Shown one piece after another: positions 1 to 64,000 of a DNA stretch of 64,000 bases. The position numbers were made by a program, and so were the translations under genes. The stretch comes from a virus, in the IMG/VR virus record IMGVR_UViG_3300009550_000009, one strand, 5' to 3'. Within the stretch, counting starts at the first letter, position 1. Each line of letters starts with the position of its first letter. Under the pieces are notes generated by a model. That model did not search any database, was not told where the DNA came from, and was given only the letters and a program-made list of their open reading frames with translations.

Positions 1-1
1 T

Positions 2-895
2 ATAGAAAAAGATGTTATTAAATTAAATAATCATCATGATTATAATACAACTAATATAACAGAGTTATATAAAATAGTTGAAGAATTAAAAGAAAAACAA
101 GAGATATTAAAAGAGGAAGTAAATACTAGACCTATTCAGCCAGATCCAAGTGAAGATAATGCAGATCCTCTTACACCAACCAATCAAAATTTTGCAACTC
201 ATGAAGATTTAGCAGAACATTATAAACTGTTCGTAAACAGAATCCAACAACAATTATATACGATTGGTGGTGGTGGTGCAGGATTTATAAAAGATTTAGA
301 TGATGTTACTTTTGATAGTGGAATAGGCACAAATAAATTATTAATTTATAATGGAAATAAATGGGTTGGTATTGCCAGCACAGCTTTAATAGGAAATATA
401 TCTGAAGTATCAGGTAATTTTAACGTTGCAGGAAACATAACTGGAACAGCAGCCACATTTACTGGAAACGTTACGGTTGGTGGAACTATCACATATGATG
501 ATGTAACATTTTTAGATTCGGTAGGAGTTGCAACTGCTAGAAGTGGTTTAGATGTTGGTGGTGGAAGTATCACTCCGATTATATCAATTCAAGCAGCAAC
601 TGATACAACTACAACCACATCAGTATCTACAATTGATAGTTTCAGCAAATCAACGTTTAGATCAGCTCAATATCAAATACAAATAACACAGGGATCTAAT
701 TATCATGTTACAACTTTGAATGTTTTACATGACGGGTCAACAGTGTTTTTAAATGAGTTTGGAACGATAAGGACAGGTGCATCTCTTGCATCTTTTGATG
801 CTGATATTAGTTCTGATAATGTAAGAGTTAGAGCAACTCCAACTACGGATTCATCCACTGTTTTTAAATTAACAAAAACCCTAACTAGAGTATGA
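2..895 (+). CDS. 5'-truncated virion structural protein (fibre/baseplate-associated type)
   Basis: Open frame 2 from the window edge to TGA 893-895, not in the ORF track. Coiled coil, then GGGGAGFIKDLDDV, Gly/Thr-rich beta repeats (GNVTVGGTITYDDV) and a C-terminal FRSAQYQIQITQG domain typical of cyanophage structural proteins. Confidence 0.65.
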   Translation: MEKDVIKLNNHHDYNTTNITELYKIVEELKEKQEILKEEVNTRPIQPDPSEDNADPLTPTNQNFATHEDLAEHYKLFVNRIQQQLYTIGGGGAGFIKDLDDVTFDSGIGTNKLLIYNGNKWVGIASTALIGNISEVSGNFNVAGNITGTAATFTGNVTVGGTITYDDVTFLDSVGVATARSGLDVGGGSITPIISIQAATDTTTTTSVSTIDSFSKSTFRSAQYQIQITQGSNYHVTTLNVLHDGSTVFLNEFGTIRTGASLASFDADISSDNVRVRATPTTDSSTVFKLTKTLTRV

Positions 896-1251
896 AGACT
901 TTTAAGGAATTCTTACAAGAGCAACCAACAATGTCGGGGGGAAATCCTCAAGCATATAGTCAGGATGCTGATGATAGTGGCCCTGTTGCCGGTCATGATA
1001 AAAGACTATTTCCTCAAGATATAGATCTTTTAGATCAAGGATTCCAAACTGCTGCAGAGACTGGAGAAAATCGTTATAACACATTTTCAAATGTGTATCC
1101 AGTTATGAGAGTATCGCTTTCAAATAATCAAGGTGATGGGCCTTCAATAGATAGTATGGTTGCAGCATCAAAGAAATTTGTTAATATAGAGGCAGCAAAA
1201 ACTGCAGAAAGAATTAAAAAAACCTATCAACAATTCATGGGATACAGATGA
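892..1251 (+). CDS. hypothetical protein with capsid-targeting-like leader MKTFKEFLQE
   Basis: Start overlaps the upstream stop; leader resembles the T4 internal-protein CTS MKTYQEFIAE. Confidence 0.7.
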   Translation: MKTFKEFLQEQPTMSGGNPQAYSQDADDSGPVAGHDKRLFPQDIDLLDQGFQTAAETGENRYNTFSNVYPVMRVSLSNNQGDGPSIDSMVAASKKFVNIEAAKTAERIKKTYQQFMGYR

Positions 1252-1892
1252 AAAGTTTAGATCGTTTTATAGAAGAGGCAGCAAAAAGTGTCTCTCCAAA
1301 AAAATGTCCACCCGGATCATATTATTGTTTTGATGAGAAAAAATGCAAAAAAATACCCGGAGGATACCACGTTGGTAGAGGTGGGTTTTTAGAACCTGAC
1401 TCTAAAAAGAAAAATGGAAATGGAGGTAACGGTAATGGAAACGGAAATGGCAATGGAAATGGCAACGGAAATGGATCTGGAAATGGTAATGGCTCTGGTA
1501 ATGGTGGGAACGGCGGCTCTGGTAATGGTGGGGGTGGCGGCGGTGGAATTGGCGAGGAGGTAGTAAACTTACCACTTCATGTTATAATTCCAAAATCTCA
1601 AGTTGAATTTAATCTAGGACTCATGTTTAAAGAGAGTTTAGATCAAGATACGGGAATGTTGTTCATATTTAAAGAGAATGGTGAAAAATATTTTCATATG
1701 AAAAATACAGTCATTCCTTTAGATGTTGCTTTTATTGACGAGCAAGGTTATGTTGCTAATATCAAAGAATTATATCCTTTAAAAACAACTGTAATTCCAT
1801 CAGAATGTAATGCCAGATATGCTCTTGAAGTTAATCGTGGTTGGTTTGAAAGAAATAATGTGAAAATAGGGGATAAAGTTTTAGATATATAA
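1248..1892 (+). CDS. DUF192-family domain protein with N-terminal Cys module and Gly-Asn linker
   Basis: C-terminal GLMFKESL..GMLFIF..FHMKNT.IPLDVAFID..YALEVNRGWF is the DUF192 pattern. Confidence 0.8.
   Translation: MKSLDRFIEEAAKSVSPKKCPPGSYYCFDEKKCKKIPGGYHVGRGGFLEPDSKKKNGNGGNGNGNGNGNGNGNGNGSGNGNGSGNGGNGGSGNGGGGGGGIGEEVVNLPLHVIIPKSQVEFNLGLMFKESLDQDTGMLFIFKENGEKYFHMKNTVIPLDVAFIDEQGYVANIKELYPLKTTVIPSECNARYALEVNRGWFERNNVKIGDKVLDI
1413..1547 (+). repeat. low-complexity (Asn-Gly)n / poly-Gly coding repeat
   Basis: aatggN/aacggN tandem units encoding NGNGGNGNGNGNG...GGGGGG. Confidence 0.9.
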
Positions 1893-1912
1893 TATATCGA
1901 TCATGTATTTGA

Positions 1913-2476
1913 ATGGAAAGTAAGAAAGGACTGCTAAAGTGGTTCGCTCTTGGTGTTGGCACTTTATTGGGCGTATCACATTTTAGTATGATTGGTTTAC
2001 TGGCAAATCGAAAAACTTTGCCGGAGATTAATTTACCTGTAGGCCCATATACTTCATATGAAGTAAGAGCAGGGCATGAAGGTTATGAAATAAAATATCG
2101 GGCAAATGATCCGAAAGTATTAACAGTAGAGAAAGATATAAACAGAAAAGGTGGTTTTCTTGGTTTAGGAAATAACAAAACAATTGTAAAAGAACAATTT
2201 GTTATGAGTTCTAGTGGAGGATATAAACAGGAAAAGAAGCTTAGTGCAGCGCAAGTCGAATGTATCAAAGCAGCAGGAGGAGGAGAGCAAACGGGAAGAC
2301 TTGTCGGGGGCAGTGTTGGCACTGTTGTTGCTAAGCCTCTTGCCTCTGTCCCCATTGTTGGTTGGGTTCTTGCTGGTGCTGCGACAATGATGGGAATGAA
2401 TGAAGGTGCTGAGATAGGTGGAAATATGGCACAAGATTTGTCAGATGCATGCCAAGAAGAAAACCTAACTAAATAA
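1913..2476 (+). CDS. hypothetical membrane-associated protein with glycine-zipper-like C-terminus
   Basis: N-terminal hydrophobic segment; GRLVGGSVG..GAEIGG. Confidence 0.7.
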   Translation: MESKKGLLKWFALGVGTLLGVSHFSMIGLLANRKTLPEINLPVGPYTSYEVRAGHEGYEIKYRANDPKVLTVEKDINRKGGFLGLGNNKTIVKEQFVMSSSGGYKQEKKLSAAQVECIKAAGGGEQTGRLVGGSVGTVVAKPLASVPIVGWVLAGAATMMGMNEGAEIGGNMAQDLSDACQEENLTK

Positions 2477-2496
2477 TAACACGATAACTCGTAAAC

Positions 2497-2883
2497 ATGA
2501 CACCATCTCAAATTTCAGCATTAGAACATTGTGGTATCAAAGTTGAAGATGCCACTGGAGACATTAAGTTTCGTGAATTCGAGTTCATTGATATAATTAA
2601 AACAGAACCACTTAAATCACCAAAATCTAATATTCAATACACAGAATATCAAGAAGCAACAAAGCTTCCAGATTATAATAAAGTAGGAAATATAATAGAC
2701 GTATACTTAGCATGGAGAGGATCAAGTTACATGATCAAAATGTTCTTCCCATCAGTCAAAAAACCATCCCGTAGAGAAGTCCAGATACAGATGCAGAAAG
2801 TGTATCCCGGTGCTAAACTCTATAATTATCAGATATCCAATCATGACCCCGGAGCACCAATCCTCCAGACAACAAGAGGATAA
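2497..2883 (+). CDS. hypothetical protein
   Basis: ORF preceded by late-promoter-like CTAAATA. Confidence 0.7.
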   Translation: MTPSQISALEHCGIKVEDATGDIKFREFEFIDIIKTEPLKSPKSNIQYTEYQEATKLPDYNKVGNIIDVYLAWRGSSYMIKMFFPSVKKPSRREVQIQMQKVYPGAKLYNYQISNHDPGAPILQTTRG

Positions 2884-2974
2884 CAAGAATTTAAAGAAGA
2901 AAATAGAAAATTTACAAAAAGTTTTAGAGTTACAACAAAAAACAATTGATCACGACAAAAAATTTATGATTTAA
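2843..2974 (+). CDS. small coiled-coil hypothetical protein (43 aa)
   Basis: MTPEHQSSRQQEDNKNLKKKIENLQKVLELQQKTIDHDKKFMI fills the gap up to the gp17 start. Confidence 0.4.
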   Translation: MTPEHQSSRQQEDNKNLKKKIENLQKVLELQQKTIDHDKKFMI

Positions 2975-2977
2975 AAA

Positions 2978-4633
2978 ATGCCTACAGTTGAAAATATTTA
3001 TCTTGGCAATCCTAATTTAAAGAAAGCCAATACACCAATTGAATTTACACAAGAACAGGTATTAGAGTTTGTGGCATGTCGTCATGATCCTGTCTATTTT
3101 GCACAAAAATATATAAAGATAGTCACATTGGATCATGGATTGCAACCATTTGCAATGTATGATTTTCAAAAAAAATTAATTGAGAATTTCCATGAAAACC
3201 GTTTTAACATCTGTAAGATGCCTCGGCAGACGGGTAAATCTACAACAGTTGTATCTTATCTCCTACATTATGCAGTATTTAATGATAATGTTAATATTGC
3301 AATACTCGCTAACAAAGCCTCCACTGCAAGGGATCTTTTAGGTAGATTGCAATTAGCATATGAAAATTTACCCAAGTGGATGCAGCAAGGTATTCTTGCT
3401 TGGAACAAAGGTTCATTAGAATTAGAAAACGGATCAAAAATATTAGCAGCATCCACATCAGCATCAGCAGTTCGTGGAGGATCTTATAACGTCATATTCT
3501 TAGACGAATTTGCTTTCATTCCAAATCATATTGCAGATCAGTTCTTTGCATCTGTATATCCTACAATATCATCTGGACAAAGCACAAAAGTTATAATAGT
3601 ATCCACGCCACATGGTATGAATCATTTCTACCGTATGTGGCATGATGCTGAACGTTCAAAAAATGAATATGTTCCTACAGATGTTCATTGGTCGGAAGTT
3701 CCGGGTCGAGATGAAAAATGGAGAGAACAAACAATTGCAAACACATCTGAAGCTCAATTTAAAGTTGAGTTTGAATGTGAATTTCTTGGATCAGTTGATA
3801 CTTTGATTGCCCCAAGTAAATTAAGAAGTTTGGTATATGAGAATCCAATAAAAAGAAATGCTGGATTGGACGTATATGAAGATCCTGCTGTAAAGCATGA
3901 TTATGTTTGCACAGTTGACGTTGCTCGTGGAGTTGGAAATGATTACTCTGCGTTTGTAGTAATTGATATTACAACTTTCCCTCATAAGGTTGTGGCAAAA
4001 TATCGAAACAACGAAATAAAACCAATGCTGTTTCCCTCAATAATATATGAAGTATGCAAAAGTTATAACAATGCCTTTATATTATGCGAGGTGAATGATA
4101 TTGGTGATCAAGTTGCATCAATTCTCAATTTCGATATGGAATATGAAAATCTCTTGATGTGTTCAATGAGAGGTCGCGCTGGTCAAATTGTTGGGCAAGG
4201 TTTTTCTGGAAAGAAAACTCAACTTGGTGTAAAAATGTCTAAGACCGTCAAGAAAGTTGGATCGTTAAACCTAAAAACAATTGTTGAAGCAGATAAACTG
4301 ATATTTTGTGATTATGAAATATTAAGCGAACTTACAACATTCATACAAAAAAGTAATTCATTTGAAGCAGAGGAAGGATGTAATGATGACCTTGCCATGT
4401 GTCTCGTCATATATGCATGGTTAGTTCAGTGTGATTATTTTAAAGAACTTACTGATCAAGATGTCAGAAAAAGATTATATGAGGAGCAAAAAAATCAAAT
4501 AGAACAAGACATGGCTCCCTTTGGTTTCATGGACGATGGACTTGGCGAAGATACGTTCATTGATTCTGACGGTGATCGTTGGAATAAAGCTGACGAATAT
4601 GGAGACCGATCTTTTATGTGGGAGTATCGATGA
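2978..4633 (+). CDS. gp17: terminase large subunit gp17
   Basis: PRQTGKST Walker A, IFLDEFAF Walker B, DVARG and DDLAM nuclease motifs. Confidence 0.98.
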   Translation: MPTVENIYLGNPNLKKANTPIEFTQEQVLEFVACRHDPVYFAQKYIKIVTLDHGLQPFAMYDFQKKLIENFHENRFNICKMPRQTGKSTTVVSYLLHYAVFNDNVNIAILANKASTARDLLGRLQLAYENLPKWMQQGILAWNKGSLELENGSKILAASTSASAVRGGSYNVIFLDEFAFIPNHIADQFFASVYPTISSGQSTKVIIVSTPHGMNHFYRMWHDAERSKNEYVPTDVHWSEVPGRDEKWREQTIANTSEAQFKVEFECEFLGSVDTLIAPSKLRSLVYENPIKRNAGLDVYEDPAVKHDYVCTVDVARGVGNDYSAFVVIDITTFPHKVVAKYRNNEIKPMLFPSIIYEVCKSYNNAFILCEVNDIGDQVASILNFDMEYENLLMCSMRGRAGQIVGQGFSGKKTQLGVKMSKTVKKVGSLNLKTIVEADKLIFCDYEILSELTTFIQKSNSFEAEEGCNDDLAMCLVIYAWLVQCDYFKELTDQDVRKRLYEEQKNQIEQDMAPFGFMDDGLGEDTFIDSDGDRWNKADEYGDRSFMWEYR

Positions 4634-5326: not shown

Positions 5327-7633
5327 ATGGCGACTCCTCAATTATCTCCCGGCGTATTGGTCAGAGAGGTTGATTTAACAGTAGGAAGAGCAGATAATGT
5401 ATTAGACAATATCGGCGCAATAGCGGGCCCATTTCGTCTTGGCCCAATTGATGAACCCATTCAAGTATCAAATGAAGAGGAGTTAATCAAAAATTTTGGT
5501 AAACCACTTTCAACTGATAGGCAGTATGAATATTGGATGAGTGCAGCATCATTCTTATCATATGGTGGTGTATTAAAGGTAGTAAGAGCAGACGATGATG
5601 ACTTAGGTAATGCTAACGCTGGTGTTGGTATTGCATCTACAACTGTCATTGGTGGATCAGGTGGTTTAAAAATAGAAAACTATGATGATTATCAGCAAAA
5701 TCATGTTGCCGATACAAGTTTCTATTATGCTGCTAAAACTCCGGGTTCTTATGCTAACGGATTAAAGGTTTGTCAGATCGATGATCAAGCAGATCAAATA
5801 ATCGGAATCAATACAACAAGTTTAGAAGATTACGGTGCAACAATTGGTGTCGGTGTCACAGCAGCATTAACTAATGTTGTCATACCGGGTGCAGGATCAA
5901 CTGCAACATTCACTGGACATCTGAAAGGAATCATTACAGGTGTGGCAACAGATGCTACAAATGGTGATTCAAAAATTGATGTTAAGATTACTGCAAGAGT
6001 ATCAAGTGCCGGAACAGAATTTAAAATAGATTATGCACAAAATTCACTAACCAACTCATTTAAAACAGTAACTGAAGGTGGTGGAGCAGGAATTGCAGCA
6101 ACAACTGTATTCTTTGTGAATAGTTCAGGTATTAACACTGGTGCACCGAACGCACCAATCACAGCTGCATCTGCAGAAATTGTAACAGCAGTAGATTGGT
6201 ATGATCAACAAACTCTAGGATTAGAAAACTCAACTATTTTCTGGAAAACACTTGCACCTAGACCAGTATCTAATAAGTATACACTTGATAGAAATGGTAA
6301 GAACGATGGTATTCACGTTGCAGTCATTGATGATGCTGGAACAATAAGTGGTGTTCAAGGTAATGTTCTTGAGAAACATCTTAACTTATCTAAAGCACAT
6401 GATGCCATCTCGAATGTAAATTCTCCAGAAAAAATTTACTATAAGCAATATCTTGCAGATAGATCAGAAAATCTTTATGCTGGATTTAATCCATCACAAT
6501 CACAAGATGCTTTCCATAAAACTGCTGCTGGATCATTCCAAGAACCAAGAGCAACAGGATTCTCAACAGGATTTGTTGCAAATACAACTGCTCAAGGTTT
6601 GTGGAGTCAAAATGCTCAGAATAATACATTCGCAGCCATAGGTAATGTAACTTACAACCTTGGTGGTGGAACAGATTACACTAGCGTTTCTGGTGCAATT
6701 CCTGCTCCCGGAGCAAATGGTGGAATGACTGCTACGCTCTCTGATCTTAAAACAGCGTATGACACACTTTCAAATAAAGATGAACAGGCAGTTGATTTTA
6801 TAATCATGGGGCCTGGTCTTGGATCTAGAGATTTATCTCAAGCAAAAGCAAATCATGTAATCTCAATTGCAAATGCAAGAAAGGATTGTATTGCTACTGT
6901 TGGGCCACATAGAGATGATCTTGTTAACATATCCAACACAACAACACAAACAAATAATTTAATACAATATTTCAGTCCATTAACCTCATCATCATATTGT
7001 GTGTTTGATAGTGGTTACAAATATATGTTTGATAGATTCAATAATGAATTTAGATTCATTCCTGCTAATGGAGACACTGCCGGATTGATGGTTCGCACAG
7101 CGGTCACTTCATTCCCATGGTTCTCACCTGCTGGTGAACAAAGAGGTGTGTTGAATAATGCTATTAAATTAGCATATAACCCAACCAAAGCACAGAGAGA
7201 TATACTTTATCCTCAAAGGGTTAACTCTTACATAACCAAACCGGGAATCGGAACATTATTATTTGGTGATAAAACTGGATTGTCATTTGCATCTGCATTC
7301 GACAGAATCAATGTTCGTCGTTTATTCCTCACTGTGGAACAAGCACTTGAAAGTGCTGCTGAAGCACAACTCTTTGAGTTGAATGATGAACTAACAAGAG
7401 CAAACTTTAGAAATATTGTTGAACCGTTCTTGAGAGATGTTGAAGCAAAACGAGGAATATCAGGATTCCTAGTTATTTGTGATACATCAAACAACACTCC
7501 TGATGTTATTGATAATAATGAATTCAGGGCTGACATCTTCCTGAAACCAGCAAGATCAATCAACTTCATCACACTAACATTCGTTGCCACTAGAACTGGA
7601 GTTAGTTTTGAAGAAGTCGCAGGTCGAGTTTAA
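5327..7633 (+). CDS. gp18: tail sheath protein gp18
   Basis: LSPGVLVREVDLT N-terminus; PWFSPAG, FDRINVRRLF, IFLKPARSINFITLTF. Confidence 0.98.
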   Translation: MATPQLSPGVLVREVDLTVGRADNVLDNIGAIAGPFRLGPIDEPIQVSNEEELIKNFGKPLSTDRQYEYWMSAASFLSYGGVLKVVRADDDDLGNANAGVGIASTTVIGGSGGLKIENYDDYQQNHVADTSFYYAAKTPGSYANGLKVCQIDDQADQIIGINTTSLEDYGATIGVGVTAALTNVVIPGAGSTATFTGHLKGIITGVATDATNGDSKIDVKITARVSSAGTEFKIDYAQNSLTNSFKTVTEGGGAGIAATTVFFVNSSGINTGAPNAPITAASAEIVTAVDWYDQQTLGLENSTIFWKTLAPRPVSNKYTLDRNGKNDGIHVAVIDDAGTISGVQGNVLEKHLNLSKAHDAISNVNSPEKIYYKQYLADRSENLYAGFNPSQSQDAFHKTAAGSFQEPRATGFSTGFVANTTAQGLWSQNAQNNTFAAIGNVTYNLGGGTDYTSVSGAIPAPGANGGMTATLSDLKTAYDTLSNKDEQAVDFIIMGPGLGSRDLSQAKANHVISIANARKDCIATVGPHRDDLVNISNTTTQTNNLIQYFSPLTSSSYCVFDSGYKYMFDRFNNEFRFIPANGDTAGLMVRTAVTSFPWFSPAGEQRGVLNNAIKLAYNPTKAQRDILYPQRVNSYITKPGIGTLLFGDKTGLSFASAFDRINVRRLFLTVEQALESAAEAQLFELNDELTRANFRNIVEPFLRDVEAKRGISGFLVICDTSNNTPDVIDNNEFRADIFLKPARSINFITLTFVATRTGVSFEEVAGRV

Positions 7634-8280: not shown

Positions 8281-9951
8281 ATGTCTAAATTATTTGGGTT
8301 CTCGATTGAGAACACAGAACCACTATCTCCAAATGTAGTATCTCCAGTCCCTGAAAATAGGGAAGACGAGTCAGACTACTTTATGAGTAGTGGTTTTTTT
8401 GGTTCTTATGTTGACATTGAAGGTGTATTTAAAACTGAATTTGATTTAATAAAAAGATATCGTGAAATGAGTCTGCATCCAGAAGTGGATAGTGCCATTG
8501 AAGATATTGTAAATGAAGCTATAGTTTCTGATACAAATGATCATCCAGTTGAAATTGATCTAGATCATTTAAATGCAAGTGATGGTATTAAAAAGAAAGT
8601 AAGAGAAGAATTTAAATATATTCTTGATTTATTGGATTTTGATAAAAAAGCACATGAGATATATCGTAATTGGTATATTGATGGTAGAATCTATTACCAC
8701 AAAGTAATTGATATTAAAAAACCAGAAGAGGGTATTCAAGAATTAAGATACATAGACGCAATCAAAATGCGTTATATAAGACAAGAACAAAAATCAAAAG
8801 AGGACAAATATAAAGTAAACAATCTTTTATCAGATAATCCTACTGATTATCCCTTTCCAAAGATAGAGGAGTATTTTGTTTATAATCCAAAAGCCGCATA
8901 TCCAACTGGTAACATTCAAGCAAGAGGTGCATCTCAAGGAATTAAAATGTCAAGAGATTCAGTCTCTTATTGCACATCTGGTTTAGTAGATAGAAATAAA
9001 GGAACTACATTATCATACTTACACAAGGCTATCAAATCACTTAATCAATTACGTATGATTGAGGATAGTTTGGTGATATATAGATTATCCCGCGCTCCAG
9101 AGCGTAGGATTTTCTACATTGATGTAGGAAACTTGCCGAAGATCAAAGCAGAACAATATCTCAGAGATGTGATGATGCGATATCGAAACAAATTAGTTTA
9201 CGACGCTAACACAGGAGAGATCCGCGATGACAAAAAGTATATGGCGATGCTTGAAGATTTCTGGTTGCCTAGAAGAGAAGGAGGGCGTGGAACTGAGATT
9301 TCTACTTTACCGGGAGGTCAAAATCTCGGAGAGATCACGGACATCGAATACTTCAAGAAAAAACTCTATAGATCGCTCAATGTCCCGCCGTCGAGAATGG
9401 ATGGCGAAGGAGGATTTAACTTGGGACGATCTTCAGAGATACTGAGAGATGAGTTAAAATTTACTAAATTTGTTGGACGTTTGAGAAAAAGATTCTCAAA
9501 TATGTTCCATGATATGTTACGCACTCAACTAATATTAAAGAACATTATTACCCCAGAAGACTGGGAAACAATGAGTGAGCACATACAATATGACTTTTTA
9601 TATGATAATCACTTCTCTGAACTCAAAGAATCTGAGTTATTAAATGAGAGATTAGGTAACGTTGCAACAGCAGAACCATATATTGGAAAGTATTTCTCAC
9701 AGGATTATGTAAGACGTAAGATACTTAGACAAACTGATGAGGATATCATAGAACAAGATAAATTAATTAAACAAGAAATTGCGAGTGGTGCAATTCCAGA
9801 TCCAAGTATTCCTGTTGATCCACAAACAGGTTTACCAATGGATCAAGCTGGATCTACAGGAGATCTTGGTGCACCAGTTCAAGAACCAGATCTAGAATCT
9901 GAAGGTGGTGCAACAGAAGCACCCACTATCCCTAGTGGTGGGGAAATATAA
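8281..9951 (+). CDS. gp20: portal vertex protein gp20
   Basis: YRLSRAPERRIFYIDVGNLP, EDFWLPRREGGRGTEI. Confidence 0.98.
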   Translation: MSKLFGFSIENTEPLSPNVVSPVPENREDESDYFMSSGFFGSYVDIEGVFKTEFDLIKRYREMSLHPEVDSAIEDIVNEAIVSDTNDHPVEIDLDHLNASDGIKKKVREEFKYILDLLDFDKKAHEIYRNWYIDGRIYYHKVIDIKKPEEGIQELRYIDAIKMRYIRQEQKSKEDKYKVNNLLSDNPTDYPFPKIEEYFVYNPKAAYPTGNIQARGASQGIKMSRDSVSYCTSGLVDRNKGTTLSYLHKAIKSLNQLRMIEDSLVIYRLSRAPERRIFYIDVGNLPKIKAEQYLRDVMMRYRNKLVYDANTGEIRDDKKYMAMLEDFWLPRREGGRGTEISTLPGGQNLGEITDIEYFKKKLYRSLNVPPSRMDGEGGFNLGRSSEILRDELKFTKFVGRLRKRFSNMFHDMLRTQLILKNIITPEDWETMSEHIQYDFLYDNHFSELKESELLNERLGNVATAEPYIGKYFSQDYVRRKILRQTDEDIIEQDKLIKQEIASGAIPDPSIPVDPQTGLPMDQAGSTGDLGAPVQEPDLESEGGATEAPTIPSGGEI

Positions 9952-9954
9952 ATA
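9947..9954 (+). promoter_or_regulatory. T4-type late promoter TATAAATA
   Basis: Exact gp55 consensus 30 nt before ORF 9984. Confidence 0.75.
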
Positions 9955-9983
9955 TAAAAGGTTAAAGTATTATTTTCTAAAAT

Positions 9984-10220
9984 ATGGACGATTTAATGGA
10001 TATGATCATCGCTGATGAATCGCCGTCACAAATTAGTGATACGATTAAAGATGCTTTGTTTTCAAAATCAGCTGAGCGTGTTGATGCCTTTCGACCTCAA
10101 GTGTCATCATCAATTTTTGATAATGGTGAAGTAGAGGATGAAATAGAGGATGAAGTAGAAGCAGAGACTGAAACAGACGTAGAAGCTGAAGCAGATACTG
10201 AAATAGGTGACGAAGAGTAA
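9984..10220 (+). CDS. acidic prohead-core-like small protein
   Basis: Lies between gp20 and gp21 (T4 gp67/68 slot); highly acidic tail. Confidence 0.7.
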   Translation: MDDLMDMIIADESPSQISDTIKDALFSKSAERVDAFRPQVSSSIFDNGEVEDEIEDEVEAETETDVEAEADTEIGDEE

Positions 10221-10222
10221 CC

Positions 10223-10230
10223 TATAAATA
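10223..10230 (+). promoter_or_regulatory. T4-type late promoter TATAAATA
   Basis: Exact consensus in intergenic gap. Confidence 0.8.
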
Positions 10231-10256
10231 AATAAAAAATGATCTAGAGTATATCA

Positions 10257-10859
10257 ATGGCTTTAAGAACTGTCGGGACAGGGGCATCACTACCAATAAA
10301 AGTGGGTGTAGCGCAGACATCTTCGTTTTTCACAGTGCAATCAGGTTACATGCGTGTAGTCGCAAAAGGATCTGGTGCACATGTCACTATTGGAACCGAT
10401 GCTAGTGCAGCAATAACTGATTTGTATATTCATGCAGGCCCCGAAGGTGAAACTTTATCAATGACTAAGGCATCGCAAAGAGTTGTTGGTATAAGCACTG
10501 GAACAACAACTGTTCTCACTGCACCTGAAGGAACACATATGCCATTTGTTCCCGGTGACATCGTAACAGTTGAATTTGGTAGTAATGCATCTGTTGATAC
10601 TAATTACAGTGCAAAACTAACTGGTGGAGTATCAGTTCTTTCAGTTGATAATAACATTCCAAATGTTATATCAGATAACTTTGCTCGCAGTAACATTACT
10701 GTTGCAGCAGATACATCGGGTATTATCACAGCATTTAATTCAGCAGCAGATTCCACTGTAAGAAAAGTTTTAAAACTATCTTGCATTGCTGCAAAGGGTG
10801 AAGGTGCTGCTAATAGTGTATTCCATTTTCAACAAGTTCAAACTACAGGTAGTGCGTAA
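10257..10859 (+). CDS. putative virion structural protein
   Basis: Late promoter; Thr/Ser/Gly/Ala-rich beta composition; head operon. Confidence 0.65.
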   Translation: MALRTVGTGASLPIKVGVAQTSSFFTVQSGYMRVVAKGSGAHVTIGTDASAAITDLYIHAGPEGETLSMTKASQRVVGISTGTTTVLTAPEGTHMPFVPGDIVTVEFGSNASVDTNYSAKLTGGVSVLSVDNNIPNVISDNFARSNITVAADTSGIITAFNSAADSTVRKVLKLSCIAAKGEGAANSVFHFQQVQTTGSA

Positions 10860-11509
10860 TGAAACTGATTAGAGAAGAAATCGAAACCGTTGAATTTCTT
10901 GTCGAACAAAAGAACGGCAAAAAATCAATGTATATCGAAGGTGTATTCTTACAAGGAAACATTAAAAACCGTAATGGTAGAATGTATCCTATGGAAACTC
11001 TTCGTAAAGAGGTTTCTCGTTATAATGAGAATCACATACAATCTGGAAGAGCACTTGGTGAATTAGGTCATCCCGAAGGCCCAACTGTTAATCTAGACCG
11101 TGTTTCCCATAAAATTGTATCACTCAGAGAGAACGGATCCAATTTTATTGGAAAGGCAAAATTATTATCCACACCAATGGGTAAAATTGCGTCTTCTCTC
11201 GTCGAAGAAGGAGTCAAACTCGGAGTCTCATCTCGTGGAGTTGGATCTCTTAAAATGACAAGAGAGGGTATAAATGTAGTAGGAAGCGACTTTATGTTGG
11301 CGACTGCTGCAGATATAGTTGCCGACCCTTCCGCACCAGATGCTTTCGTTGAAGGAATCATGGAAGGAAAGGAGTGGGTATGGGATGGAGGAATACTTCG
11401 AGAGAAGTATGCTGAAAAAACATACAAACAAATTAATACATTAACAGATCAGAAAAAATTAGATGAGCAGAAATTGAACCTGTTCAACGACTTTTTGTCT
11501 AATTTATAA
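10859..11509 (+). CDS. gp21: prohead protease gp21
   Basis: NRNGRMYP, ALGELGHP, GVSSRGVGS, DIVADPSAPDA. Confidence 0.98.
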   Translation: MKLIREEIETVEFLVEQKNGKKSMYIEGVFLQGNIKNRNGRMYPMETLRKEVSRYNENHIQSGRALGELGHPEGPTVNLDRVSHKIVSLRENGSNFIGKAKLLSTPMGKIASSLVEEGVKLGVSSRGVGSLKMTREGINVVGSDFMLATAADIVADPSAPDAFVEGIMEGKEWVWDGGILREKYAEKTYKQINTLTDQKKLDEQKLNLFNDFLSNL

Positions 11510-11559
11510 CTTTTCTAAATAAAAATAGTTTCAAATCAAGACTCATCGGAGTAGTTAAA

Positions 11560-12687
11560 ATGTCTCGTGGCACAAAATTACAAGAAATGGAAGTAAAGAC
11601 ACAGCAATCTAAATCCGCTGTCAATGCTAACGCCAAGCCAGGCGATCCAATGCCAAAACTTACAACAGGTGGAACACCACCAACATATGAAGATCTCGGA
11701 GGGCCAACTCCTGAGAATTATAGACCAGATGATGATTCGGCAAAAATCAAAGAGCCAGGCGGTTCCCTTAAACAAGTTAAGGATGTCGTTAACAAAGGTG
11801 CTAAAGGAGCAGACCCCATGAAGTCCGGTGGGAAAGGTTACAAGGAGGAAGAAGAGGTGGAACTCGAAGACCAGCAAGAAATTGTTTCTGAAGATGACGC
11901 TGCTACCGAAGAGGAAGTAGTTGCAGAAGAAGATCAAGTAACCGAAGAGCAAGTTGAAACTTATGACATCGATGATGATGTCAAAGCTTTACTTGGAGGA
12001 GAAGAACTCTCTGAAGAGTTTAAAAACAAAGCAAAAACAATCTTTGAGACTGCGCTCAAGTCTAAAGTTGCCGAAGTAAGGTCACTTTTAGAGCAGCAAT
12101 ACGAGGAAAAACTCGGACAAGAGATTGTTGAAGCAAAAGAGGAACTCTCAAGTAGAGTTGACTCATATCTTGAGTATGTCGCTGACGAATGGTTTACTGA
12201 AAACCAGTTAGCAGTAGAGACAGGACTCAAAGAAGAACTTACAGAATCATTCCTTGGTGGAATGAAAAGTCTTTTTGAAGAACATTATGTATCAATCCCT
12301 GAAGATAAATACGATGTGCTTGAGAGCATGGTAGAAAAACTTGATGACATGGAAACAAAACTCAATGAGCAAATTGAGAAGAATATTGGATTAAACAAAC
12401 GTCTCGCAGAGTCGGTTGCCGATGGTATTCTTGATGAAGTTTCTGAAGGGCTCGCGTCCACACAGAAAGAGAAGCTCGCTTCACTTGCCGAAAGTGTAGA
12501 GTTTGAAAGTGAATCCGAATATCGTGAGAAGCTAGAGGTTTTAAGAGAATCATATTTCTCTTCAAAATCAACACCTTCATCAGCTAAAACTGAAACTTTA
12601 TCTGAGGGAGTAGATAGTTCACCTGAATCAGTTCAGGGTTCTATGAGTGCATACCTGAAAACACTTTCAGCATTTAGCAAAAACTGA
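11560..12687 (+). CDS. gp22: prohead core scaffold protein gp22
   Basis: Acidic coiled coil with LSEEFKNKAKTIFE and VDSYLEYVADEW; between gp21 and gp23. Confidence 0.95.
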   Translation: MSRGTKLQEMEVKTQQSKSAVNANAKPGDPMPKLTTGGTPPTYEDLGGPTPENYRPDDDSAKIKEPGGSLKQVKDVVNKGAKGADPMKSGGKGYKEEEEVELEDQQEIVSEDDAATEEEVVAEEDQVTEEQVETYDIDDDVKALLGGEELSEEFKNKAKTIFETALKSKVAEVRSLLEQQYEEKLGQEIVEAKEELSSRVDSYLEYVADEWFTENQLAVETGLKEELTESFLGGMKSLFEEHYVSIPEDKYDVLESMVEKLDDMETKLNEQIEKNIGLNKRLAESVADGILDEVSEGLASTQKEKLASLAESVEFESESEYREKLEVLRESYFSSKSTPSSAKTETLSEGVDSSPESVQGSMSAYLKTLSAFSKN

Positions 12688-12732
12688 TTTTAAAATTAAA
12701 TCAAACGTAAACTTTAAAAGGTAAATCCGCAA

Positions 12733-14175
12733 ATGTTTCAATCAGAATCATTGCAGGAAAAGTGGAAGCCACTTCTTAACTATGAGGGCCTTGATGAAAT
12801 CAAAGATCCCCATCGTAAAGCAGTTACCGCTGTCCTGTTAGAAAATCAAGAAAAATTCCTCAGAGAGGAGCAAGCATTTACATCAGGAATCAACCTGATG
12901 GAACAACCAACTGTTAATACAAACACTGGTGCTAATGCTGGTTTCAGTGCTGGTGCAACTGCATCTGGCCCTGTCGCTGGTTTTGACCCTGTATTAATCA
13001 GTCTTATCCGTCGTTCTATGCCTAACTTGGTCGCATATGACCTAGCAGGTGTTCAACCAATGAGCGGCCCAACTGGACTTATCTTCGCGATGAGATCCAA
13101 GTATAACACCATGTCCGGTGGAAGTTCTACAGAAACATTCTACAACGAAGTAGATTCTGCATTCTCCGGTCGTGACAGAGGAACTAACGCCGAAACAGGT
13201 TTTGTTGACGGTGCAGCTGGTATGGGAACAACATCTGTTTCTTCTACTAACCCTGCAGTTCTTAACCCTGTATCATCTGCTGATTCCACATCCTACAGAG
13301 TAGGTCAAGGAATGAGAACAGACGAGGCAGAAGCGTTGAATACTGGTCAAGATCAGTTCAACCAGATGGCATTCTCAATCGAGAAGATCACTGTTACTGC
13401 TAAGTCCAGAGCACTAAAGGCAGAGTATAGTTTAGAACTTGCTCAAGACCTTAAGGCAATCCACGGATTAAACGCAGAGGCAGAACTTGCTAACATCTTA
13501 TCAACTGAGATACTTGCTGAGATAAACAGAGAAGTTATCAGAACAATCTATAAGACTGCAGAGCAAGGTGCTGTTCAAAACGTTGCAACCGCTGGTATAT
13601 TTGACTTAGACGTTGACTCCAACGGTAGATGGTCAGTTGAGAAGTTCAAAGGACTACTCTTCCAGATCGAAAGAGATGCGAACGCAATTGCACAAAGAAC
13701 TCGTAGAGGAAAGGGTAACATCATCCTTTGTTCTGCTGACGTTGCTTCTGCTCTAACAATGGCTGGCGTTCTTGACTACACTCCTGCACTTAATGCTAAC
13801 CTTAACGTTGATGACACCGGTAATACATTTGCTGGAACATTACAAGGTAAGTTCAGAGTATACATCGACCCATATGCTGCTAACCTAACAGGTTCTGCAT
13901 CTGGTGGTGCTGCTCCTACAGGTGGTAATCAATACTATGTTGTTGGTTACAAAGGAACATCTCCATACGATGCTGGATTGTTCTACTGCCCTTACGTTCC
14001 ACTTCAGATGGTTCGTGCAGTGGGAGAAAATAGTTTCCAACCAAAAATCGGGTTTAAGACTCGTTATGGTATGGTTGCTAACCCATTCGCAGAAGGCACA
14101 CAAGCAGGTCTTGGTTTCCTTAGTGTTAACTCAAACCGCTACTACAGACGTGTTGCTGTTAAAAACCTTATGTAA
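12733..14175 (+). CDS. gp23: major capsid protein gp23
   Basis: GVQPMSGPTGLIFAMR, KSRALKAEYSLELAQDLKAIHGL, FQPKIGFKTRYG. Confidence 0.99.
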   Translation: MFQSESLQEKWKPLLNYEGLDEIKDPHRKAVTAVLLENQEKFLREEQAFTSGINLMEQPTVNTNTGANAGFSAGATASGPVAGFDPVLISLIRRSMPNLVAYDLAGVQPMSGPTGLIFAMRSKYNTMSGGSSTETFYNEVDSAFSGRDRGTNAETGFVDGAAGMGTTSVSSTNPAVLNPVSSADSTSYRVGQGMRTDEAEALNTGQDQFNQMAFSIEKITVTAKSRALKAEYSLELAQDLKAIHGLNAEAELANILSTEILAEINREVIRTIYKTAEQGAVQNVATAGIFDLDVDSNGRWSVEKFKGLLFQIERDANAIAQRTRRGKGNIILCSADVASALTMAGVLDYTPALNANLNVDDTGNTFAGTLQGKFRVYIDPYAANLTGSASGGAAPTGGNQYYVVGYKGTSPYDAGLFYCPYVPLQMVRAVGENSFQPKIGFKTRYGMVANPFAEGTQAGLGFLSVNSNRYYRRVAVKNLM

Positions 14176-14197
14176 GCGAGATGCTTATATATTTTTC

Positions 14198-14226
14198 AAA
14201 GAGACCCTTGACGGGTCTCTTTTTTT
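14198..14226 (+). terminator. intrinsic terminator after gp23
   Basis: AAAGAGACCC-TTGAC-GGGTCTCTTT plus T run. Confidence 0.9.
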
Positions 14227-14236
14227 ATGCTATTCT
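14208..14236 (+). promoter_or_regulatory. sigma70-like promoter embedded in the terminator
   Basis: TTGACG-17 nt-TATTCT with extended TG. Confidence 0.65.
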
Positions 14237-14261
14237 ATAAAAGCATACACACATTTACACT

Positions 14262-14465
14262 ATGAAACCCGTAGCACGAGTAACCGACAAGTTTGATGTC
14301 GTCACTTTTTTAGCAGATCAATATCTATTAGAGTCTATTAATAGTATCGATAAAAGATTAGGGCAAGGATATGCCAAAAAGAATCCTCAATTAGTTTCTA
14401 CAATGGTTAAAATTATGCAAGATTGTTCTTTTGTTAATGAAGGACAAATTGCAGTATTAAATTAG
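14262..14465 (+). CDS. hypothetical protein in a promoter-gene-terminator cassette
   Basis: 67-aa ORF between two near-identical terminators. Confidence 0.65.
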   Translation: MKPVARVTDKFDVVTFLADQYLLESINSIDKRLGQGYAKKNPQLVSTMVKIMQDCSFVNEGQIAVLN

Positions 14466-14470
14466 CAAGA

Positions 14471-14495
14471 GGAGACCCGAAAGGGTCTCTTTTTT
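14471..14495 (+). terminator. intrinsic terminator
   Basis: GGAGACCC-GAAA-GGGTCTCT plus T run, followed by late-promoter-like CTAAATA 14498-14504. Confidence 0.9.
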
Positions 14496-14521
14496 ATCTA
14501 AATAAAGAAAAGAGTAATAAT

Positions 14522-15076
14522 ATGTCTCGACCATCACAAATTGAAAATAGAAATTTTCTCTCTCCAGTTGGGTTTAAATTTAATCTTAAACGAAGTCCGG
14601 GGGTTGCTTTCTTTTGCAATACTGCAAATATTCCAGACCTCAACTTAGGAGTTGCCAACCAACCAAACTACTTAAGAGATATACCAGTTCCCGGTGATAA
14701 AATTGATTTCGGTGATTTAAACATCCGATTTCTTGTTGATGAAGACTTAAAAAATTTCATGGAAATACAAAAATGGTTAAGAGGTTTAGGTTTTCCAGAA
14801 GAAGTTCAAGAGTTTCGTGATTGGGAAGCAAGTGGACTTCAACCAAAAAGAAACTATGGTAAAGCACCTCAAGATATTTTTTCTGATGGAACTTTACAGA
14901 TTTTAAGTAGTAACTTTATTCCTAAATTTAATGTTACATTTAAAGATTTATGGCCCTATAGTTTGACTACTTTATCATTCGATGCTACAGATACAGATAT
15001 TGAATACTTTACAGCTGATGCAAGTTTCAAATATACCATGTATAATATAACTGACTTATCCAATAATCCTTTATGA
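14522..15076 (+). CDS. gp3: tail completion / sheath stabiliser gp3
   Basis: NRNFLSPVGFKF, PGDKIDFGDL..RFLVDEDL.N..EI..W. Confidence 0.9.
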   Translation: MSRPSQIENRNFLSPVGFKFNLKRSPGVAFFCNTANIPDLNLGVANQPNYLRDIPVPGDKIDFGDLNIRFLVDEDLKNFMEIQKWLRGLGFPEEVQEFRDWEASGLQPKRNYGKAPQDIFSDGTLQILSSNFIPKFNVTFKDLWPYSLTTLSFDATDTDIEYFTADASFKYTMYNITDLSNNPL

Positions 15077-15507
15077 TTGATCTTGAAAAACTTCAAGAGA
15101 TGTGGGAAAAAGATGCAAAAATAGATCGTGATAATCTACATGATGAGTCACTTAATATCCCCTCTCTACATGCAAAGTATTTTGAATTATATAATACAAT
15201 CTTTCTATTAAGAAAAAAAGCAGAACAACAAAGAAAAAATATTCGTCATGAACGGTATGAGTATTTTAGTGGAAAAGCAGATCCAGATGTTTATATTGAG
15301 AATCCATTTCCAAAAAAGATAAGAGATAAAGATACCATGACTAAGTATCTTGATGCAGATGATAAATTATCAAATGCCACTTTGAAAATAGATTACTATG
15401 ATACGATGTTAGTATATCTCGAAAGTATTCTTAAAGTAATACAAAATAGGACATTTCAAATTAAAAATGCTATTGAGTTTATGAGATTTAATTCTGGACT
15501 GGGTTGA
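15073..15507 (+). CDS. uvsY: recombination mediator UvsY
   Basis: ESLNIPSLHAKY, RYEYFSGKA, NRTFQIKNAIEF. Confidence 0.93.
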   Translation: MIDLEKLQEMWEKDAKIDRDNLHDESLNIPSLHAKYFELYNTIFLLRKKAEQQRKNIRHERYEYFSGKADPDVYIENPFPKKIRDKDTMTKYLDADDKLSNATLKIDYYDTMLVYLESILKVIQNRTFQIKNAIEFMRFNSGLG

Positions 15508-15534
15508 TAAATACATATAGATTTATGGATCTAT

Positions 15535-17453: not shown

Positions 17454-17458
17454 GTAGC

Positions 17459-59070: not shown

Positions 59071-59500
59071 TTATGAAAATCCCTGGCTATATAAAGGTTC
59101 AAATTTCTCTTCTAATGATATTGGCGATTTCTTCGGTTACGTCTACATCATTACAAATAATAAGAACGGTAGGGAATATATCGGACGTAAATATTTTTGG
59201 CAGTTCAGAACTCCTAAAGGTAAAAAACGAAAAGTAAAATCAGAATCTGATTGGAAGAAGTATTATGGGTCTTGTCCGGAACTTAAAGAAGAAATTGGAC
59301 GATTGGGTAAACAAAATTTTAGTCGAACTATCTTATCATTACATTATACAAAGGGCAAAACAAACTACGAAGAAACCAGACAACTCTTTACGAACAGGGT
59401 TCTTACGGAGCAGCTTGACGATGGAACCCCAAAATACTACAATAGCAACATACTCTCAAGATATTTTAGAAAAGATTACTATGAAGGGAACATCGACTGA
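59054..59500 (+). CDS. short GIY-YIG-like nuclease
   Basis: GYVY.ITN...REYIGRK..YYGS..E..YYN. Confidence 0.75.
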   Translation: MSMTIDYENPWLYKGSNFSSNDIGDFFGYVYIITNNKNGREYIGRKYFWQFRTPKGKKRKVKSESDWKKYYGSCPELKEEIGRLGKQNFSRTILSLHYTKGKTNYEETRQLFTNRVLTEQLDDGTPKYYNSNILSRYFRKDYYEGNID

Positions 59501-61998: not shown

Positions 61999-62027
61999 TT
62001 GACATTTAATTCTTAATTTCTTATAAT
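61999..62027 (+). promoter_or_regulatory. consensus sigma70 promoter
   Basis: TTGACA-17 nt-TATAAT. Confidence 0.85.
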
Positions 62028-62047
62028 AATTATAATACGATAATCGC

Positions 62048-63181
62048 ATGAGTAAATTTAAAAAAACTGCACTTGTTCTCGGTGCTGGTGGCTTTATTGG
62101 AAGTCACATGGTTAAGCGACTTAAATCCGAAGGATACTGGGTGCGTGGAGTTGATTTAAAATATCCTGAATTTTCAGACAGTGAAGCACATGAATTTATT
62201 CAAGGTGATTTACGTGATGTTCATTTTGTAAAACGTGTCCTTGAATTTAAAGGTTATCAAGGTAATTTTTATAATTCAGTTCCTTATCAACACATTGAAC
62301 CATTTGATGAGATATATCAATTTGCTGCTGATATGGGTGGTGCAGGGTTTGTATTCACAGGAGAGAATGATGCAGACATCATGCACAACTCAGTATCAAT
62401 TAATTTAAATGTTTTAGAAGAACAAAGAAAGTTGAATGAAACATTCAATGGTGAAAAGAAAGATTGGACAGAAGCAAATAGATCTAAGTTACTCTGGAAA
62501 ACAAAGATATTTTATTCTGGGTCTGCATGTATGTATCCAGAACACAATCAACTAGACCCTAATAACCCAGACTGTCGTGAAGAATCCGCTTACCCTGCTA
62601 ACCCTGATTCCGAATACGGATGGGAAAAACTCTTTTCTGAGAGGTTATATCTCTCTTATAATCGTAATCATGGTATCCCTGTTAGGATTGCTCGTTACCA
62701 TAACATCTTCGGGCCAGAAGGAACATGGAAAGGAGGAAGAGAAAAGGCTCCCGCTGCCATCTGCAGAAAGGTTGCCTACGCTACCAGCGGAGATGAGATT
62801 GAAGTATGGGGAGACGGAGAACAAACAAGATCCTTCCTCTACATCGACGAATGTATTGAAGCAACCCGTAGGCTTATGGATTCCGATTTTCTAGGGCCTG
62901 TAAACATAGGGTCTGAGGAGATGGTTACTATTAATCAATTGGTAGAGACTGCTGCTAAAGTTGCAAATAAAACAATTAAGAAAAATCATATTGATGGCCC
63001 TCTAGGAGTGCGTGGTCGTAATTCTAACAATGATCTTATTCGTGAGAAACTTGGGTGGGATTATGAGCAAACTTTAGAGGAAGGTATCAAGAAAACATAT
63101 GGTTGGATAAGTTGGCAAATATCTAAAGAACTTTATCAGGAAGCAGATCCAATTTTAAACGAGGCAATGATTGCAGGTTAA
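62048..63181 (+). CDS. GDP-mannose 3,5-epimerase-like SDR
   Basis: GAGGFIG, FAADMGGAGF, SACMYPE, YGWEK, GGREKAPAAICRK, GVRGRNS match the GME subfamily. Confidence 0.88.
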   Translation: MSKFKKTALVLGAGGFIGSHMVKRLKSEGYWVRGVDLKYPEFSDSEAHEFIQGDLRDVHFVKRVLEFKGYQGNFYNSVPYQHIEPFDEIYQFAADMGGAGFVFTGENDADIMHNSVSINLNVLEEQRKLNETFNGEKKDWTEANRSKLLWKTKIFYSGSACMYPEHNQLDPNNPDCREESAYPANPDSEYGWEKLFSERLYLSYNRNHGIPVRIARYHNIFGPEGTWKGGREKAPAAICRKVAYATSGDEIEVWGDGEQTRSFLYIDECIEATRRLMDSDFLGPVNIGSEEMVTINQLVETAAKVANKTIKKNHIDGPLGVRGRNSNNDLIREKLGWDYEQTLEEGIKKTYGWISWQISKELYQEADPILNEAMIAG

Positions 63182-63183
63182 TT

Positions 63184-64000
63184 ATGAGAGTTAGTATATT
63201 GGGCTCCGGTGGACAGATAGGAGCATATCTTGCAGAATATTTTCGCAAGAAAAATTATGAAGTCTTAGAGTTTGATATTACAAACGGTCAACATGAAGAT
63301 ATGACTGTGATTCCTAATCCAGAATTGCATCGTAAAATAATGTTGTCAGATTTTGTTTTCTTTTTAGCATTTGATGTTGGTGGATCGCATTATCTTAAAA
63401 AATATCAACACACATTTCAGTTCATAGATAACAACACTAGACTGATGGCAAACACATTTGGGTTATTGCAAAAATATAATAAACCTTTTGTATTTGCATC
63501 ATCACAAATGAGTAACATGTCATACTCACCTTATGGTGTGTTAAAAAGAGTTGGCGAACTTTATACCAAGTCTCTTGGTGGATTAATTGTCAAATTTTGG
63601 AATGTTTATGGCATTGAAAAGAATATGGAAAAGGCACATGTCATCACAGATTTCATTCGTAAAGGATTTGAAACTGGTGTCATAGATATGATGACAGATG
63701 GAACTGAAGCAAGGGAGTTTCTTTATGCAGAAGACTGTTGCGAAGCGTTGGAAGCTGTCATGGCAAATTATGATAGACTTACTTCTGACGACGAACTTCA
63801 TATTACTACTGGTAATTGCACAACTATACTGGAAATTGCACAGAGTATACAAAAATTATTTTCCAACATTGGAAAAGAAGTTGTGATCAGACGATCAGAA
63901 TCTGTAGATGAAGTGCAGAAAGATGCCCGAAACATATCAGATCCTTACATACAAAAATTTTGGAAATCTAAAACCTCTGTTAAAGAGGGTGTTTCAAAAG
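63184..64000 (+). CDS. NAD-dependent epimerase/dehydratase, 3'-truncated
   Basis: MRVSILGSGGQIG..AFDVGG..YGVLK..NVYG..REFLY; frame open to the window end; not in the ORF track. Confidence 0.85.
   Translation, partial: MRVSILGSGGQIGAYLAEYFRKKNYEVLEFDITNGQHEDMTVIPNPELHRKIMLSDFVFFLAFDVGGSHYLKKYQHTFQFIDNNTRLMANTFGLLQKYNKPFVFASSQMSNMSYSPYGVLKRVGELYTKSLGGLIVKFWNVYGIEKNMEKAHVITDFIRKGFETGVIDMMTDGTEAREFLYAEDCCEALEAVMANYDRLTSDDELHITTGNCTTILEIAQSIQKLFSNIGKEVVIRRSESVDEVQKDARNISDPYIQKFWKSKTSVKEGVSK

Follow-up and report, generated by a model that had tools for sequence, protein, structure and literature searches.

Why should a long stretch of phage DNA lack every copy of certain short palindromes that its composition and its proteins would allow in large numbers? 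The question is raised by the IMG/VR virus record IMGVR_UViG_3300009550_000009, from which we analysed 64,000 nucleotides (the window, by which we mean this whole stretch). The original prediction held that GTAC, GGWCC and CCWGG (W, A or T; S, G or C), words of RsaI, AvaII and EcoRII/Dcm type, had been purged from it by synonymous codon choice, and it offered as the cause either strong restriction by the host or nucleases of the phage itself. Our analyses demonstrate a genuine, strong and ongoing avoidance of restriction sites, which is a known kind of adaptation, and point to Type II restriction by the host as the likely selective agent.

Judging from its synteny with S-SSM7 and from tblastn comparisons, the window can be assigned to a T4-like cyanomyovirus of the Kyanoviridae. 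It has a guanine-plus-cytosine (GC) content of 34.9%, is 95% coding and carries 84 called open reading frames (ORFs), 82 of them on the plus strand. These form a structural and replication module that includes terminase and tail-sheath genes through gp20-gp23, uvsW, gp46/47 and cobS, as well as gp45/44, gp43, uvsX, gp41 and nrdAB, with a cluster of glycan genes at the 3' end. No isolate has a major capsid protein more than 82% identical to that of the window, the closest being those of Bellamy, S-B43 and SynMITS9220M01. At least three metagenomes contributed five further IMG/VR contigs of the same lineage (G001 and G003-G006), which match the window with mostly 98-99% identity and reach beyond both of its ends. 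Together with a sixth contig (L213), the window and these five contigs make up a composite of ~117 kb, from a genome that is probably near 200 kb.

Loss of three palindromes from the window and its lineage

The depletion was measured against two null models, namely Markov expectations (first-order and maximal-order) and 300 within-gene shuffles of synonymous codons, which keep every protein and the codon usage of each gene. GTAC, the most under-represented of all 4-mers, does not occur once, against Markov expectations of 125 (first-order) and 145 (maximal-order) and a shuffle expectation of 126.6 ± 8.4 with a minimum of 107. GGACC and GGTCC both stand at zero, where the shuffles yield 35.0 ± 3.5 GGWCC and the Markov models 21-37, and CCWGG is reduced to five copies from an expected 40.1 ± 4.0 (shuffles) or about 45 (Markov). 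The complete absence of GTAC and of both forms of GGWCC, first reported from manual counts, is therefore confirmed by Markov and codon-shuffle expectations alike. The abundance reported for GATC, CCGG, GGCC and TGCA (285, 59, 48 and 391 copies) holds as well, all four being at or above the shuffle expectation. Among all 4-6-mers, the purged words occupy the bottom ranks. Depletion is seen in every reading frame (0, 0 and 0 GTAC where 44, 60 and 22 are expected) and the non-coding DNA has been emptied too; as it extends over all frames and leaves the proteins unchanged, it acts on the DNA word and not on the codon context. Two longer palindromes are also missing, TTCGAA (0 versus 15.9 expected) and ACTAGT (0 versus 7). 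Taken as a whole (positions 1-64,000, no strand assigned), the window is thus devoid of GTAC, GGWCC, HCCWGGD and TTCGAA, holds AGCT at 0.30 of expectation and has an excess of CCSGG and GGSCC. The original prediction had overlooked the depletion of AGCT, the absence of TTCGAA and HCCWGGD, and the G or C that flanks the surviving CCWGG sites.

All three words are removable in every frame through synonymous codon choice, and codon choice changes precisely at the junctions where they could form. Glycine is encoded by GGC or GGG in 31 of 31 cases when it precedes proline, although 86% of the glycine codons overall end in A or T (GGC and GGG together accounting for 14% genome-wide), and proline preceding glycine is CCC or CCG in 33 of 37. 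A codon of the form xGT is used in none of the 123 pairs in which Gly, Ser, Cys or Arg is followed by Thr, GTA in none of the 148 valine codons ahead of a codon starting with C, and TAC in none of the 110 tyrosine codons that follow a codon ending in G. These counts bear out what had been noticed by eye, namely that about 30 Gly-Pro pairs are all GGC-CC or GGG-CC, that about 35 of 39 Pro-Gly pairs are CCC-GG or CCG-GG, that Gly/Ser/Cys/Arg-Thr pairs avoid xGT-AC, and that the purge runs counter to the bias towards A/T-ending codons.

The centre of a Gly-Pro (GGN-CCN) or Pro-Gly (CCN-GGN) pair is forced to be either W or S, and which of the two is taken depends on which words are dangerous for the phage. 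This lineage takes S, as it could if CCGG and GGCC were not restricted for it, and most relatives take W, as they would if CCGG, GGCC and GGSCC had to be avoided. Because W has been replaced by S at purged sites, CCSGG reaches 35 copies versus 13.9 in the shuffles (2.5-fold) and GGSCC 36 versus 11.9 (3.0-fold). The earlier statement that every CCSGG falls in the Pro-Gly frame is nearly correct, since 33 of the 35 do so and the other two lie in DNA called non-coding.

The same purge is found across the lineage and is still being maintained. GTAC and GGWCC are absent from all five contigs, and the 117-kb composite contains 0 GTAC for 248 expected, 0 GGWCC for 68, 8 CCWGG for 79, 0 HCCWGGD for 56 and 0 TTCGAA for 30. 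A set of single-nucleotide polymorphisms (SNPs) was provided by the 739 distinct positions where contigs and window disagree, and a null was obtained by moving each SNP to random positions with a matching codon position, base change and synonymous class. Under this null, 10.3 SNPs creating GTAC and 3.5 creating GGWCC are expected; none of either kind was found in any contig, and control words (GATC, TGCA and GTNAC) arise by SNP at or above the null rate. Three SNPs would each create GTAC if they stood alone, and every one of them is paired with a neighbouring second change. At positions 30346-30351 (plus strand), a coupled synonymous pair reads GTT-CTA in the window and GTA-TTA in G001, G003 and G004, such that a single change in either would yield GTAC. 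Purifying selection against new sites acts in the present population, and the lack of site-creating SNPs together with the coupled changes rules out a purely mutational or historical explanation. With independent metagenomes in agreement, the case made earlier for selection instead of base-calling error is upheld.

Different purge lists in related cyanomyoviruses

Our comparison included 21 other cyanomyoviruses, with 100-250 kb sampled from most and 74 kb from one record. All 21 show several total or near-total palindrome purges, each with its own list (L008-L109, L194-L198, L227-L286), and in none of them are GTAC, GGWCC and CCWGG purged jointly. CCGG is purged in 15 of the 21, and GCGC and CGCG also figure among the words lost by relatives, whereas the lineage studied here, like few others, has retained CCGG and GGCC. 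Counts of TTCGAA approach zero in 17 of the 21, and many other 6-mers have been purged too. The extremes (observed/expected) include CTAG in S-SM2 (0/520), CCGG, ATGCAT and CAATTG in S-SSM7 (0/165, 0/80 and 0/102), CCGG, GCGC and CGCG in P-SSM2 (0/116, 0/72 and 0/35), and TCGA in P-TIM68 (11/77; L068-L074, L100-L102). P-SSM2 is a mirror image of our lineage, with 347 GGWCC for 186 expected and 7 GGSCC for 92. In P-TIM68, moreover, C precedes GATC in 17 of 1600 half-sites, that is, words of the CGATCG type are avoided.

GTAC itself is partly low in P-TIM40, Syn9, P-HM1, P-RSM4 and S-TIM4, at 0.17-0.34 of expectation. AGTACT is near zero in P-RSM4, S-TIM4, P-TIM40 and P-HM1, and so is TGTACA in three of these, P-HM1 not being flagged for it (L232-L241, L262-L266, L282-L286), which suggests a target of the WGTACW type in these four phages. 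GTAC counts are normal in relatives with a comparable composition and codon bias, and the purge is specific to the lineage.

The depletion of AGCT has a different distribution. In the window, AGCT is found 55 times against 183 in the shuffles, AGCC/GGCT are also low, and RGCY words overall number 168 against 362, the most depleted contexts being GAGCT (4 versus 36) and GAGCC (1 versus 16). AGCT (and AGCC/GGCT) stands at 0.14-0.5 of expectation in 18 of the 21 relatives, compared with 0.99 for AGCT in the one cyanobacterial genome counted (G071). The depletion of AGCT is thus shared by phages across the family and distinct from the purge that marks this lineage. Methyltransferases of the N4/N6 families are present in nine relatives, P-SSM2 and P-TIM68 having two each and 7 of 12 further isolates at least one; no link between these genes and the depletion of AGCT was apparent among the relatives compared.

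Surviving CCWGG sites and their flanks

The description of the third word as an EcoRII/Dcm-type CCWGG proved too broad. Five copies survive in the window, all given here on the plus strand: GGCCTGG at 6812-6816, where the site overlaps the RGCY word GGCC; AGCCAGGC at 11638-11642 and again at 11755-11759, both overlapping AGCC; GGCCTGG at 34890-34894, which also overlaps RGCY and is CCGGG in G001, G003 and G004; and CCTGGCT at 59082-59086, with the RGCY overlap (GGCT) on its 3' side. All 10 distinct sites that survive in the lineage have G at position -1 or C at +1, a state that the shuffle null gives to 18-19% of sites. All 10 also overlap an RGCY word, the C of which is the outer C of CCWGG, against null values of 8.4% overall and 46.5% among flanked sites. 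HCCWGGD is absent from the window, where 32.4 copies are expected, and the lone CCWGG created by a SNP (51686) reads CCAGGC, again flanked by C. The purged word is therefore narrower than plain CCWGG; it is CCWGG without an RGCY overlap, or without a G or C flank.

The sites that persist would be those that cannot be cut, either because their outer C is methylated via the overlapping RGCY or because the enzyme needs a non-G flank (HCCWGGD). According to the first of these readings, which we consider quite possible, a methyltransferase, either of the host or from a phage gene outside the ~117 kb, would methylate RGCY, and with it the outer C of CCWGG, thereby blocking cutting. The RGCY overlap of every survivor speaks for it. 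So does the methylation known from marine viruses, in which RGCY carrying N4-methylcytosine (m4C) is the commonest methylated motif and m4C is also found at CCWGG and GGWCC in myovirus-like genomes (PMC8919816), so that other marine myoviruses protect these very words by methylation. However, a search of the ~117 kb of lineage contigs yielded no DNA methyltransferase of the families PF00145, PF01555 and PF02086 and no cytosine methyltransferase, and the depletion of RGCY itself is odd for a protected word.

S-SSM7, a distant relative (W01, L008-L019), also speaks against methylation at RGCY. It has G or C flanks at 196 of its 206 CCWGG sites (95%; 11-27% in other relatives) and only 10 HCCWGGD for 193 expected, but its sites mostly have a pyrimidine at -2 and just 65 of them overlap RGCY, and no PF00145 or PF01555 gene was found in it. 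As a general rule, RGCY masking thus fails in S-SSM7 (65 of 196). This phage forbids CCGG as well, and its Pro-Gly pairs are saved by the flank rather than by CCS codons.

The second reading, possible in our view, is that the enzyme recognises the 7-bp word HCCWGGD and that recognition is spoilt by a preceding G or a following C, on either side. The complete absence of HCCWGGD from the window and the composite agrees with this, as does the obedience of S-SSM7 to the flank rule on a large sample. What it leaves unexplained is the constant purine at -2 in the lineage (0.465^10, about 5 × 10^-4), and we know of no characterised enzyme with HCCWGGD specificity. RGCY masking is the best fit to the lineage, whereas a 7-bp specificity fits S-SSM7.

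An analogous flank rule applies to GGCC. In the relatives that purge this word (Bellamy, P-TIM68, S-SCSM1, P-SSM2, P-SSM4, Syn19, P-HM1 and others), the survivors are nearly all TGGCC(A), with 0-3 VGGCCB where 30-116 are expected. TGGCCA has been reported as a motif methylated to 5-methylcytosine in marine metagenomes (PMC8919816).

Host enzymes and phage nucleases as possible selective agents

Between the two causes first proposed, host restriction is the better supported, the purge being palindrome-specific, frame-independent, lineage-specific and under present selection, and a GGWCC restriction pair occurring in the host family. The lineage would meet several orthodox Type II enzymes in natural populations of picocyanobacterial hosts, and their specificities may be RsaI-like (GTAC), AvaII/SinI-like (GGWCC) and of the CCWGG type, with TTCGAA also purged and AGCT more weakly. 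The phage apparently carries no matching methyltransferases; a genome bearing these sites would be cut on entry, and as a consequence site-free variants would win. Full elimination of sites is a known strategy of non-temperate double-stranded DNA (dsDNA) phages against orthodox Type II systems (PMC6286503). On the host side, we searched 401 species-representative genomes of one cyanobacterial family. One of them, G071 (1.4 Mb, 40.7% GC), encodes an RE_SinI protein beside a C5 methyltransferase. This complete SinI-type pair (L190; G071:C1:112309-115800) consists of a 211-aa RE_SinI and a 390-aa C5 methyltransferase, located at 1372-2007 and 2021-3193 of that locus, and in the 160 kb of G071 that were counted GGWCC is the only clearly depleted palindrome (51 versus 111-142, observed/expected 0.36). 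Genes for C5 methyltransferases were found in 44 of the genomes searched.

Several observations weigh against host enzymes as the agent. RE_SinI was found in just that one genome of 401, and no enzyme specific for GTAC or CCWGG came to light, with EcoRII-C in none of the 401, in a search that had no family model for RsaI-type (GTAC) enzymes. RE_HpaII was likewise found in none, though CCGG is the commonest purge among the relatives. These family models span part of the diversity of restriction enzymes, and the 401 genomes are a sample. For Prochlorococcus, the published figure is 0-1 restriction-modification systems per genome (PMC8262939), so that purges of this number and strength are not easily reconciled with what is known of the host repertoire. 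S-SSM7 and Bellamy share WH8109 as isolation host but differ in their purge sets, so that the laboratory host does not predict the purge pattern. Since ~117 kb have been seen of a probable ~200 kb, a phage methyltransferase or nuclease may lie elsewhere in the genome.

It is unlikely, we think, that the phage, a competing phage or a mobile element encodes partnerless site-specific nucleases that destroy the DNA of the host or of competitors at GTAC, GGWCC and CCWGG, to which a site-free phage would be immune. What speaks for it is that picocyanobacteria are poor in restriction-modification systems (PMC8262939), and yet every cyanomyovirus checked has many total purges. However, no restriction-enzyme family was matched among the lineage-specific ORFs of the 117 kb, which are sugar enzymes, unknowns and one ORF with a weak GmrSD_N/DUF262 match. 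The latter, of 434 aa (35364-36668, plus strand; PHROG 1583), gives 29.8 bits for a cut-off of 33.2 and is the only nuclease-related match. It lies within a 1.46-kb insertion (35250-36709) that is lacking in G001 and G004, where the flanks are joined within ~40 bp. The proposal that the phage deletes sites to escape nucleases of its own thus found no support.

One ORF considered as such a nuclease encodes 483 aa (46026-47477, plus strand) and has invariant PAD and SLKK motifs. It belongs to a large cyanomyovirus family of unknown function, which numbers over 600 marine viral proteins and has a conserved position following mazG. The nearest named clusters in a language-model comparison are one of the HpaII family (0.86) and a viral one with RE_HaeIII in 24% of its members (0.85), both scores being below 0.9, the level from which the method counts a similarity as meaningful. 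The protein has no sequence match in Pfam, PADLOC or the PDB, and its PHROG is one of unknown function. Its AlphaFold model (full chain; predicted local distance difference test, pLDDT, 76) has no Foldseek match in the PDB at E <= 0.001. In a wide VIA search, which matched no solved nuclease, the highest Z was 5.5 and was confined to the N-terminal helices, and an atlas structure search returned viral hypothetical proteins only. Nor do gene and purge occur together. Homologues with 49-58% identity occupy the same syntenic place in L207, L209, L210, L211 and L212, which have normal GTAC and CCWGG counts, while no homologue is present in G006, a variant of 98% identity in which the purge persists: the segment 45488-47476 (the end of ORF 45030-45716, ORF 45767-46021 and ORF 46026-47477) is replaced there by ~1.9 kb of unrelated sequence. 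The segment is a variable slot after mazG. With no fold match for the full-chain model, homologues in phages that lack this purge and no copy in the purging G006, this ORF is unlikely to be the restriction enzyme behind the purge. It also seems quite improbable that nucleases of phages or competitors, rather than host restriction, are what selects throughout the family, each lineage deleting its own words and the present one in addition masking its last CCWGG sites by RGCY methylation; if true, however, this view would explain the dozen or more total purges in phages of nearly restriction-free picocyanobacteria. Least credible of all is an origin without any selection on sites, through mutational decay (e.g., deamination of methylated C), codon-pair bias or an artefact of assembly or base calling. 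Some background effects of composition do exist, given the moderately reduced counts of AGCT and of several words with CG in many phages. Against such an origin stand exact zeros for 127-248 expected copies, loss in all frames and in non-coding DNA, coupled changes that dodge GTAC, the lack of any GTAC-creating SNP where 10.3 are expected, the agreement of independent metagenomes, and normal GTAC counts in relatives of similar composition and codon bias.

Some other features of the lineage deserve mention. A 375-aa ORF (32612-33739) matches the Pfam family DruA (Druantia protein) with 32.9 bits for a cut-off of 27 and has homologues in S-SSM7 and AG-345-O18. Genes of sugar metabolism are numerous, both in the window (21015-23159, 34554-35261 and 62048-64000) and beyond it (L092 12397-19056 and L213). 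They include a truncated UDP-glucose dehydrogenase, a sulfotransferase, a phosphomannomutase, epimerases, GT17 and GT2 glycosyltransferases, two Methyltransf_24 genes and an NAD synthase, and form a long glycan cluster that continues past the 3' end of the window, the two downstream Methyltransf_24 genes being inside the glycan operon. In G001 (L006 ~8400-20000), ~12 kb located 5' of the baseplate and tail-fibre genes have no ORF of at least 120 aa and contain small ORFs only.

Evasion of these kinds of enzymes has precedents. The DNA of phages T3 and T7 is refractory to EcoRII through the sparseness of its CCWGG sites, and Anabaena cyanophages have no AvaI or AvaII sites, AvaII-type (GGWCC) enzymes being classically cyanobacterial. 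As in our lineage, a CCWGG- or GGWCC-type enzyme is evaded there by having few or no sites. However, two of our survivors, at 11638 and 11755, are only 117 bp apart, so that the rule differs from that of T3/T7 in being RGCY overlap and not sparseness alone, and the hosts, unlike Anabaena, are marine picocyanobacteria. Chloroviruses encode restriction-modification pairs that degrade host DNA, with self-protection by methylation and enzymes that are recognisable. They resemble the idea of a phage nuclease in that a viral enzyme attacks host DNA at 4-bp words such as RGCY and GTAC, but neither nuclease nor methyltransferase was found in the 117 kb of our lineage. Earlier work on the avoidance of restriction sites by phages is said to have come from Sharp in 1986 and Rocha et al. 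in 2001. The closest parallel is the Type II site avoidance of virulent dsDNA phages (Rusinov et al. 2018, PMC6286503), where short palindromes are also eliminated or nearly so, lineage by lineage and with proteins unchanged, typically in non-temperate phages that have no matching methyltransferase. Our case differs in the simultaneous loss of three words of 4-5 bp plus TTCGAA from a genome of probably about 200 kb, in hosts with a reported 0-1 systems per genome, and in the strict flank rule that the survivors of one word follow. Marine myoviruses that methylate their own DNA (Hiraoka et al. 2022, PMC8919816) have the same words under pressure (GGWCC, CCWGG and RGCY), but our lineage deletes the sites, with no methyltransferase found in 117 kb. 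Our literature search turned up no study of site avoidance in marine cyanophages, and PMC6286503 does not mention cyanophages.

Site avoidance is textbook knowledge and its mechanism is not new. The present instance is unusually complete, with a word set unique to the lineage, and it is an unusually clean case, in which a 4-mer and a 5-mer are wholly absent from 117 kb, selection is visible in the population and coupled codon changes avoid GTAC. It also belongs to a family-wide pattern in which each cyanomyovirus has its own purge list, yet the hosts are thought to be almost devoid of restriction-modification. This richness of purges in the face of scarce host systems is the most interesting point. 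Flank rules, such as those of CCWGG here and of TGGCCA for GGCC in the relatives, lead to testable predictions on enzyme specificities or on the methylation of phage DNA. Purge lists could record the restriction enzymes that circulate in wild Prochlorococcus and Synechococcus, and may provide a signal for linking uncultured phages to their hosts.

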